From Octopus vulgaris (lineage: Eukaryota): a stretch of 64,000 nt of DNA. The translations under genes and the position numbers were made by a program. Below are positions 58,440-60,443 of the stretch, one piece after another. The DNA lies in NCBI GenBank assembly GCA_951406725.2, contig OX597816.1, forward strand, positions 110,484,001-110,548,000. Direction: 5' to 3'. The notes beneath the pieces were generated by a model. That model was not told where the DNA came from. It ran no database searches and saw only the letters and a program-made list of their open reading frames with translations. The stretch's first letter is position 1; every line of letters starts with the position of its first letter.

Positions 58440-58831
58440 CTAGCAGTATCGCCCGGCGTTGCTCGGGTTTGTAAGGGAAATAATTATATAAGCATTTTTA
58501 GAGATGTAAAGTATAATAGCCATCTCAATATGGCTAACCACAAAGGGGAGGGGTGTTACTGTAGCTTTTTACGTTCTGAGATTTAATAATAAATTTTAGA
58601 GAGTTACTTCCCTTATATATGTCAAAAATGGATTAACAATGGGAAAAATTGATGGTAAATTTTTTTTAATCGTAGACTCATCGTAGACGCGCGCTAATAC
58701 CCAGACGGTCTCGATATGAATCACGACTATAAGATACCCGGTTTTGGTTAAACTGCACCGCAAAATGTGGGAGTAGTTAGGAATCTAAATCGTAGGAGAC
58801 AGACCCACAACCTCACTTTTATATATAAAGA
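58440..58831 (-). mobile_element. Non-autonomous Helitron (~392 bp)
   Basis: Minus strand begins TCTTTATATATAAAA and ends with a GC hairpin (CCCGAGC-AAC-GCCGGG) ~10 nt before a terminal CTAG. Inserted between A and T with no TSD. Confidence 0.88.
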
Positions 58832-58929
58832 TTTCCTCTATTTACATAATATTGAGGTCTCTTTCTTTCTTTTGTTATCTTACTGTTTTTACCAATATAC
58901 ATATATATATATATATAAATATATATATA

Positions 58930-59252
58930 GTTACAGAGATGTACTTGCATAGCAAGTGACTTGATCTGAGATCGTGTGCTGGAACGAAAACAGTTGCAGC
59001 GTTGAAGGTGTTTATAAGCCATTTAAGAAACACACAAAAACCGTTAGATTCACTTCAACATTTAAATTTAATTTGTCAAAATATTTTCGTCGCTTTGAGA
59101 CCGCGACCTGTTAGCACGATATTTTTGTCAGTGAACAGGTCGCGGTCTCAAAGCGACGAAAATATTTTGGCAAATTAAATTTAAATGTTGAAGTGAATGT
59201 AACGGTTTTTGTGTGTTTCTTAAATGGCTTACAAACACCTTCCACGCTGCAA
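58930..59252. mobile_element. Fold-back element (family E): 119-bp inverted arms, 21-bp spacer, variant hammerhead motif
   Basis: 58994-59112 is the reverse complement of 59134-59252 (about 4 mismatches). (TA)n on both sides. Confidence 0.88.
59124..59174 (+). ncRNA. Candidate type I hammerhead ribozyme with G3/C8 variant core
   Basis: UUUGUCA-GUGAACA-G-GUCGC-GGUCUCAAA-GCGAC-GAA-AAUAUU-U-UGGCAAA: 7-bp stem I, 5-bp stem II, palindromic stem III. Confidence 0.6.
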
Positions 59253-59334
59253 TATATATATATACACACATATATATATATGTATGTATGTATGTAGTGT
59301 GTATATGTGTATGCATGTATGTGTGTGTGTGTGC

Positions 59335-59550
59335 GTGTCTGTGCTTGTGATTGTCCTCCACCACTGCTTGACAACGAATGTTGGTTTGTTTACATCCCTG
59401 TCACCTAGTGGTTTGACAAAGGAAACATATAGAATAAGTACAATGCTTACAAAAATAAAACTGGAGTTGATTCATTAAACTACAATTCTTCAAGGCATTG
59501 CCCCAGCATGGCCACAGACCAATGGCTGGAAAAAGCAGAAGAATAAAAGA
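59335..59550 (+). mobile_element. SINE 3' portion following a (TG)n tract
   Basis: GCTTGACAAC...TTTACATCCC.GT.AC.TAG.GGTT.G.CAAA...ATAGAATAAGTAC...CCAGCATGGCCACAG. Homologous to 60522-60700 and 62885-63085 (minus). Confidence 0.75.
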
Positions 59551-59618
59551 ATACATTCTCTGCTTTGGTCTTATGTTCAAGGCATGAGAAAGCTTGAGTT
59601 TACATGAGAAAGCCTAAC

Positions 59619-59880
59619 AGACCTGGTAGAAACAGCAGCCAAATCTCCCTCAAATCACACCTTACTGTCTTATGTATGTATATATATATGAGCCAATGAG
59701 GGGGACCTCTACATGGTAGCTAGACCTGGTAGAAATAGCAGCCAAATTTCCCCCAAATCACACCTTACTGTCTTATCTATGTATATATGTATGAGCCTAT
59801 GAGGGAGACCCCTACATGGCAGCTAGACATGGTAGAAATAGCAGCCAAATCTCCCTCAAATCACACCTTACTGTCTTATC
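59619..59880. repeat. Tandem triplication of a ~103-bp unit
   Basis: AGAC.TGGTAGAAA.AGCAGCCAAAT.TCCC.CAAATCACACCTTACTGTCTTAT at ~59619, ~59722 and ~59825. Confidence 0.9.
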
Positions 59881-60443
59881 TTTCTGCTACTTGGATATAG
59901 GTCTTATATTCATCGTAAAAAACTTTCCTGTCACACACTCACGCACACGCACACACACATACACACACGCACCCTCACACACACACACACGCGCACACAC
60001 ACACACACACACGCACGTTAGCTTACAATTTTATTTATATATTTGCGTATCTATGTGTGGAAAGTGGAAGTGGGAGGCAGAGTGAAAGAATCACTCACTA
60101 CAGTAAGTGAATTAGTTTCATTTTATTCGTTGCCCACTGTGTGTGTGCGTTTGCGTGTGGTGTAAACCAGACTAAGAAAAGCATTTGACACACACACCAG
60201 AATGTGAGTTTTCTGTAAATTTTGCTTAATTGGAGTTTAAATTTTGAAAACTGGACCTGGCATGACGCGATGCATTGTACTCTTAAAAATGCAAGGTAAA
60301 TTGTAATTGAAGAAATCCTATATTGTAGATTTGTATAACTCCCAAAGGGAGGCAGATAAAATCTGCCTTTTATAATAAGATATATATATATGTATATATA
60401 TACATACATACATAAATTTATATATATATATATATATACATAC

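Follow-up and report, generated by a model that had tools for sequence, protein, structure and literature searches.

A hammerhead motif with a natural G3-C8 core in a Penelope-like element family of Octopus vulgaris

The 64,000 nucleotides of Octopus vulgaris DNA analysed here (assembly GCA_951406725.2, contig OX597816.1, positions 110,484,001 to 110,548,000 of the forward strand; hereafter the window) contain at 59124-59174 a type I hammerhead motif from the pseudo-long terminal repeat (pLTR) of a Penelope-like element (PLE). Positions 3 and 8 of its core are G and C. We refer to the PLE family of this motif as family A, to its two sister families as B and C and to a relic family as D. A sequence-only reading had described the stems, the GAAA, the palindromic AAUAUU and the placement of the GUGAACA core, and all of them are found on the + strand when the sequence is read directly. 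The same reading overlooked the unpaired G at 59138 and a 1.94-kb repeat around the motif. The parts of the motif are:

59124..59174, + strand: type I hammerhead motif with G3-C8 core, from the pLTR of a PLE (sequence, fold, family counts)
59124..59130, + strand: 5' strand of stem I, pairing with 59168-59174 (sequence, fold)
59131..59137, + strand: core G3 U4 G5 A6 A7 C8 A9, with G3 at 59131 and C8 at 59136 (sequence, family counts, alignment)
59138, + strand: unpaired G between A9 and G10.1, invariant in 15/15 aligned representatives
59139..59157, + strand: stem II (59139-59143 with 59153-59157) and the variable 9-nt loop II (fold, genome matches, alignment)
59158..59167, + strand: G12 to A15.1 (GAAA, 59158-59161), palindromic short stem III AAUAUU (59161-59166) and U17 (59167)
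59168..59174, + strand: 3' strand of stem I (sequence, fold)

The minimum-energy fold of the motif consists of stems I and II (z = -2.6; 3 of 200 shuffles were equally good); with the short palindromic stem III they form the three-way junction of a type I hammerhead. U4 G5 A6, G12 A13 A14, A15.1-U16.1, G10.1-C11.1 and an NUH site are all in place, the latter being the UUU triplet at 59165-59167. Hammerhead numbering predicts a cut after 59167 (U17). Stem I of the window copy contains one U-G wobble, at a place where most family copies read TGACAAA. The additional base between positions 9 and 10.1 and the palindromic stem III are traits of Penelope pLTR hammerheads. The core reads GUGAACA and departs from the literal consensus CUGANGA. 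Rfam gives no match in the window at the gathering score, and at E <= 10 on the motif stretch it returns no hammerhead family, only five unrelated weak matches (E 3-7). This agrees with the prediction of the sequence-only reading that searches based on CUGANGA would miss the motif.

Throughout the genome of the same species, G3-C8 is the norm of family A. A pattern consisting of the core, stem II and GAAA, with positions 3, 7 and 8 left free, gave 5,913 matches as compared to 0 for the reversed control, so that the motif is not due to chance. Position 8 is C in 5,570 of these matches (94%), G in 194 and A or T in 149; position 3 differs from G in 128. If stem I is required as well, 5,024 matches are left. 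GTGAACA had been suggested as the genome-wide consensus of the family, and this was confirmed: it is the core in 96 of the first 100 of the 5,024, and C3-G8 is found in none of the family A matches genome-wide. The family thus has no canonical-core members among its matches. The copies form subfamilies at separate insertion sites with differing loop II and flanks. Along this ladder of subfamilies loop II, which is variable as in minimal PLE hammerheads, and the flanks change and the core stays. The Watson-Crick pair between positions 3 and 8 is thus present in family A, with the exception of a G3·G8 sub-lineage.

The parent element was traced from a locus in which two inverted pLTR copies enclose a GIY-YIG endonuclease fragment. 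A search with this fragment found many open copies of 94-98% identity. Of the 30 best endonuclease loci (30 of 150 scored), 29 have a G3-C8 hammerhead on the strand of the open reading frame (ORF), about 1 kb downstream of the stop codon, and the hammerheads behind the ORF in these loci all read GTGAACA. L095 has an open frame of 1,025 codons with reverse transcriptase motifs, a cysteine linker and GIY-YIG, the first 26 codons of which stem from an inverted junction. Pfam identifies GIY-YIG (E = 1.8e-5) and returns no match for the reverse transcriptase, whose motifs were recognised in the translation only. In L132 the pLTR continues into the ORF, with the start codon 57 nt after the predicted cut; the hammerhead is thus placed behind one ORF and before the start of the next, as in Penelope pLTRs. 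The 3' ends of the arms fall into two clusters, +142-148 and +200-205. A CX2-5CxxC linker before the C-terminal GIY-YIG in the L095 translation and TA-repeat flanks are Neptune traits, and the element appears to be Neptune-like, a clade assignment based on linker and TA-repeat targets rather than on a reference tree. A Neptune-like ORF in L063, at first taken for the partner, was rejected as such, being truncated at the junction and failing to align for the tree. Since the hammerhead is linked to a young, open ORF encoding reverse transcriptase and GIY-YIG, the G3-C8 variant is the wild type of a recently active PLE.

A search with the N-terminal part also returned the related families B and C, which carry homologous hammerheads with other pairs at positions 3 and 8. 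Family B is 58% identical to family A over the aligned reverse transcriptase/endonuclease (RT/EN) columns and has C3-G8 hammerheads in both pLTRs, as in L186 with its open frame of 1,312 codons; by hand count, 94 of the first 100 of 4,406 matches are C3-G8. Family C (47-55% identity) has U3-A8, counted by hand in 88 of the first 100 of 3,380 matches. Its roughly 3,400 minimal U3-A8 hammerheads (L191, L193, L196, L198, L238-L247) lack loop III and have a stem I of 3 bp. An RT/EN tree, built from rows of this genome with two metagenome fragments as root after rows of fewer than 200 aligned columns had been dropped, places A as sister to B+C with support 100. Among 15 hand-picked representatives the 3-8 pair is GC in 7, CG in 4, UA in 3 and unpaired in 1. 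U4, G5, A6, the extra G, G12, A13, A14 and A15.1 are invariant in these, and stem II is paired in 100%, two of its pairs being changed on both sides. None of 500 shuffles matched this covariation, in a control that ignores relatedness. In the relic family D, C8 is present in 9 of 10 copies, G3 in 5 and G3-C8 in 4. Three lineages with three different Watson-Crick pairs constitute natural covariation, evidence from sister families that was invisible to the sequence-only reading. Other hammerhead families with canonical C3-G8 cores are found in the flanks of L140, L149, L178, L183, L187 and L251.

The window itself holds a relic of the element. Two arms of an inverted repeat, 58994-59112 and 59134-59252, are 97% complementary over 119 nt. 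They lie in two copies of a pLTR, the usual truncated copy and inverted copy with a tail at one end only, an arrangement typical of PLEs (PMC8557442). The relic and its surroundings comprise:

59113..59253, + strand: inverted pLTR copy without 3' tail, with the entire hammerhead and a remnant of the ORF start codon (59224-59226); 89-90% identity to the parent pLTRs L132 and L233
58931..59112, - strand: 5'-truncated pLTR copy with a tail of about 60 nt, broken off within the core (AACAG) and including the first ORF codons of the element; 90% identity to L132 over 182 nt
58440..60380, - strand: non-autonomous Helitron-like repeat of 1.94 kb carrying the relic, with A followed by TC at the 5' end (60380) and CTAG followed by T at the 3' end (58440)
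58452..58467, - strand: GC-rich hairpin just inside the Helitron-like 3' end (sequence)
59619..59881, strand not stated: 103-nt tandem repeat inside the Helitron-like element, the number of units varying among copies

The truncated arm retains AACAG alone from the core, as the sequence-only reading had cautioned. The ends of the 1.94-kb repeat (5' TC, 3' hairpin and CTRR, insertion between A and T) match the rules for Helitrons. The repeat resembles non-autonomous Helitrons that capture host DNA in its ends, its patchwork interior and its near-identical dispersed copies; it differs in that its cargo is a retroelement hammerhead. Besides the Penelope relic and the 103-nt array it carries microsatellites, and a second stretch resembling a 5' end, located near 58831, points to a short Helitron of older date which acquired a new 5' end 1.55 kb away.

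A search of the genome (2.8 Gb, 227 contigs) with 59113-59200 (88 nt) gave 829 first-look candidates, which are matches to the hammerhead stretch and not necessarily all copies of the Helitron-like repeat. Of the 829, 40 were scored, and all 40 are identical to the window over the 88 nt. Thirty fetched loci share about 1.95 kb with the window, well beyond the motif, at a median identity of 98.7-98.9%; the Helitron-like 3' end is found in 29 of them, each adjoining A on the + strand, and the 5' end in 25. Hundreds of near-identical copies of the repeat are present in the genome. The identity of the 40 twins was therefore rejected as a sign of selection, as they belong to one repeat family multiplied at the DNA level and are uninformative on selection at the RNA level. 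Moreover, RNA transcribed across both arms is predicted to form a hairpin of -198 kcal/mol covering A6 through stem I, and the start of the pLTR is missing. As this hairpin would bury most of the motif, the copy in the window is likely inert, carried along passively within a DNA transposon. That a kept pair implies selection for catalysis, as the sequence-only reading had argued, cannot be read from this copy or its twins, multiplied as DNA and lying in a long hairpin.

Taken together, we consider it probable that G3-C8, the standard core of family A, was kept as a swap that preserves the active fold, that the ribozyme would cut as a dimer after U17, and that the copy in the window is likely inert. 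Three related families with three matching pairs make it likely that the swap was kept by selection for a working ribozyme, and activity of the G3-C8 ribozyme is likely as judged from sequence comparison. A number of observations weigh against this reading. The covariation comes from three lineages only and thus from about two events; its weight is that of about two double changes, each of them paired, added to the known biochemistry. Most listed family B copies have C9 instead of A9 (older B copies have A9). Within family A, G8 (194 matches) is about 4.6 times as frequent as the other transversion, A8 (about 42, from 28 of 100 listed of the 149), and 26 of 30 G8 loci are G3·G8. One loop is shared by 12 of 15 fetched loci on contig C16, nearly all with different flanks, which indicates separate insertions. 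G8 stands on both arms of five insertions (L171, L228, L119, L120, L124), so the mismatched RNA acted as a template; since this sub-lineage retrotransposed, the 3-8 pair is favoured and not strictly required. Older endonuclease-linked arms are G3-C8 in 8 of 14 and G3·G8 in 4 of 14, the old near-full G3·G8 copy L135/L233 being excluded from these 14 by the length filter. The double-hammerhead dimer is computed at -24.2 kcal/mol versus -23.6 for two monomers, a gain of 0.6, and another dimer folds lower. Finally, 0 of 173 arms begin at the cut site.

Some of these points would also suit a fold that is maintained for a function other than catalysis, for instance the pairing of RNAs into dimers or contact with the element's protein; G3-C8 would then be a frozen ancestral compensation in an RNA that has lost any useful cutting rate. 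The spread of the G3·G8 sub-lineage and the C9 of family B speak for it, as does the origin of the arms, none from the cut site and about 50 of 173 from just upstream of the hammerhead (in a sample enriched for motif-holding arms), so that templates were uncut. In addition, hammerhead mutants of a lizard element still insert in vitro (PMC11167929), and Naiad elements thrive without canonical hammerheads (PMC8557442). We nevertheless regard this explanation as unlikely, although it is the strongest of the competing ones: the 3-8 pair is reported to form when the hammerhead is in its active state with tertiary stabilisation (PMC3884650), and it was re-made in three lineages, all catalytic core letters are invariant, and the youngest endonuclease-linked arms are G3-C8 in 40 of 40. 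If instead the core had drifted in a single master and the copy number merely reflected the amplification of that master, G3-C8 would be a chance pairing. The few masters behind the copies make the counts non-independent, a random dealing of the position-8 letters would by our arithmetic pair all three lineages 1 time in 6, and G occupies position 3 in only half (5/10) of the family D copies. Yet seven other core letters and the pairing of stem II are kept across families of 47-58% protein identity, and the C8 of 9/10 and the G3-C8 of 4/10 family D copies point to an old state that persisted through several subfamilies; drift of this kind seems quite improbable to us. Hardly any credence is left for the idea that the window's own copy works as a ribozyme under selection, either within the Helitron-like repeat or from the host. 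The identity of its 40 scored twins over 88 nt would fit, but the entire repeat is about 99% identical among copies and requires no selection for this, the predicted hairpin with the left arm covers A6 through stem I, and the pLTR start is missing.

The favoured reading, a G3-C8 core kept for its active fold, can be extended to a bolder scenario, which we offer tentatively and consider unlikely: one clade in one genome would have run positions 3 and 8 through C-G, U-A and G-C, with G3-C8 as an active wild type, and core-dead G3·G8 RNAs cut in trans would have spread. As dimers cut each other, such RNAs would be cut by working partners and be able to spread, and on this hypothesis trans-cutting would let them persist. 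If true, it opens a path over the fitness valley of a double transversion, visible here in the mismatch sub-lineage that is still living. It is not shown that G3·G8 was basal in the family, since mismatch copies are scattered among G3-C8 copies in the listed part of a pLTR tree of 118 arms (core masked, sample enriched for G3·G8) and family D has C8 in 9/10. The G3·G8 copies with the loop GGTCTGAAA (L218-L232, L171) concentrate on C16, a contig of 59 Mb, with 18 G3·G8 in its first 7 Mb versus 8 on the entire 226-Mb contig C1; older endonuclease matches likewise cluster on C16. In L108, L118, L122 and L220 a single insertion has C at position 8 in one arm and G in the other (in L118 the arms differ in loop II too), which looks as if one event had copied two different templates.

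Concerning the 5' ends of copies, the arms whose start lies shortly before the hammerhead cluster within a few bases of an AG-ATG junction, 20 nt before the core (around 1180 in L132). This junction follows a pyrimidine-rich stretch resembling a branch point and might be a transcription start or a 3' splice site. A G at -3, looked at as a cap-derived G, precedes 10 of 29 copy 5' ends, part of which is explained by inverted arms. Public sequencing runs (24 listed, all contigs; four examined) contain, among the differences listed, GTGAACAG in the loose-end consensus of runs labelled as organisms B, C and D; neither RNA ends nor expression can be read from such contigs. We infer that the element RNA most likely has its start, or a splice site, some 20 nt ahead of the core. 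Two RNAs would pair via the AAUAUU palindrome, each core facing and cutting the UUU site of the partner, with G3-C8 preserving the tertiary pair of the active fold. U17 in place of C17 may avoid a competing G3-C17 pair, as suggested by PMC3884650, where G3-C8 is reported (data not shown) to have higher activity with G17 than with C17; family C also has UUU. Cutting would be slow or aided by the element's protein, as for other Penelope hammerheads, and because of the small computed gain of the dimer such help is probably needed. The cut after U17 would trim a short 5' leader, 57 nt before the start codon, and would not be needed for every insertion. The absence of arms starting at the cut site fits the report on the lizard element that uncut RNA is the insertion template (PMC11167929). 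Removal of the leader could serve to adjust translation or RNA turnover rather than to produce the insertion template.

G3-C8 escapes the standard descriptors and Rfam, and thousands of motifs per genome, and also some elements regarded as hammerhead-free, may therefore be overlooked. Within related elements the three families give a natural three-way covariation for a tertiary pair of the active hammerhead. Moreover, one genome holds as wild types G-C, C-G with C9, U-A and the mismatched G·G, and this set makes it testable whether Penelope hammerheads must cut for the spread of the element or are tolerated passengers.

With the Penelope pLTR hammerheads described by Cervera and de la Peña (2014, PMC4209133) the family A motif shares the type I layout, the extra base between 9 and 10.1, which is conserved there, G10.1-C11.1, the short palindromic stem III implying a dimer, the location in pLTRs, thousands of truncated solo copies and opposite-strand pairs. 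U17 occurs in several of these published hammerheads. The core pair differs, being G3-C8 in family A as compared to C3-G8 in their consensus CUGANGAH; the same paper mentions one natural covariant, U3-A8 in Schistosoma mansoni. The element as a whole resembles the EN+ elements of the Neptune type (Craig et al. 2021, PMC8557442), with which it shares a single ORF encoding RT and then a C-terminal GIY-YIG, the cysteine linker, partial tandems, an inverted 5'-truncated copy, the tail at one end and insertion into TA repeats; the tail measures about 60 nt as compared to 30-40 in the Neptune type. Family C is a case of the natural U3-A8 hammerheads with their compensatory 3-8 change (Perreault et al. 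2011, PMC3088659), the sole natural change of this pair listed in the accessible portion of that paper. U3-A8 keeps the order of pyrimidine and purine and requires two transitions, whereas the G3-C8 of family A inverts the order and is two transversions away from C3-G8.

A natural G3-C8 hammerhead was not found in the literature searched, which yielded engineered variants only; the likeliest earlier source, Lünse et al. 2017, lay outside its coverage. The accessible portions of PMC10085705, PMC6155905 and PMC6765202 contain no G3-C8, and that of PMC13282606 does not mention ribozymes. In viral contigs the G3-C8 pattern gave at least 120 stretches; 79 matches from the 80 loci returned were examined, and none has stems I and II together. 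Metagenome contigs gave 3 loci, two of which are short PLE fragments without a hammerhead and serve only as outgroup. The family A hammerhead would thus be a natural variant of a known ribozyme, not met before in the literature searched and with good comparative support. Its closest counterpart is the Penelope hammerhead PAc of Anolis, in which either single mutation, C3G or G8C, abolishes cutting and the double mutant C3G/G8C regains part of it, the cutting being protein-assisted (Frangieh et al. 2024, PMC11167929, citing Martick and Scott 2006). The core letters and the kind of element are the same in both. The PAc variant was made in the laboratory, and G3-C8 has so far been known to us only as such a rescue mutant, whereas in the large family A it is the natural wild type.
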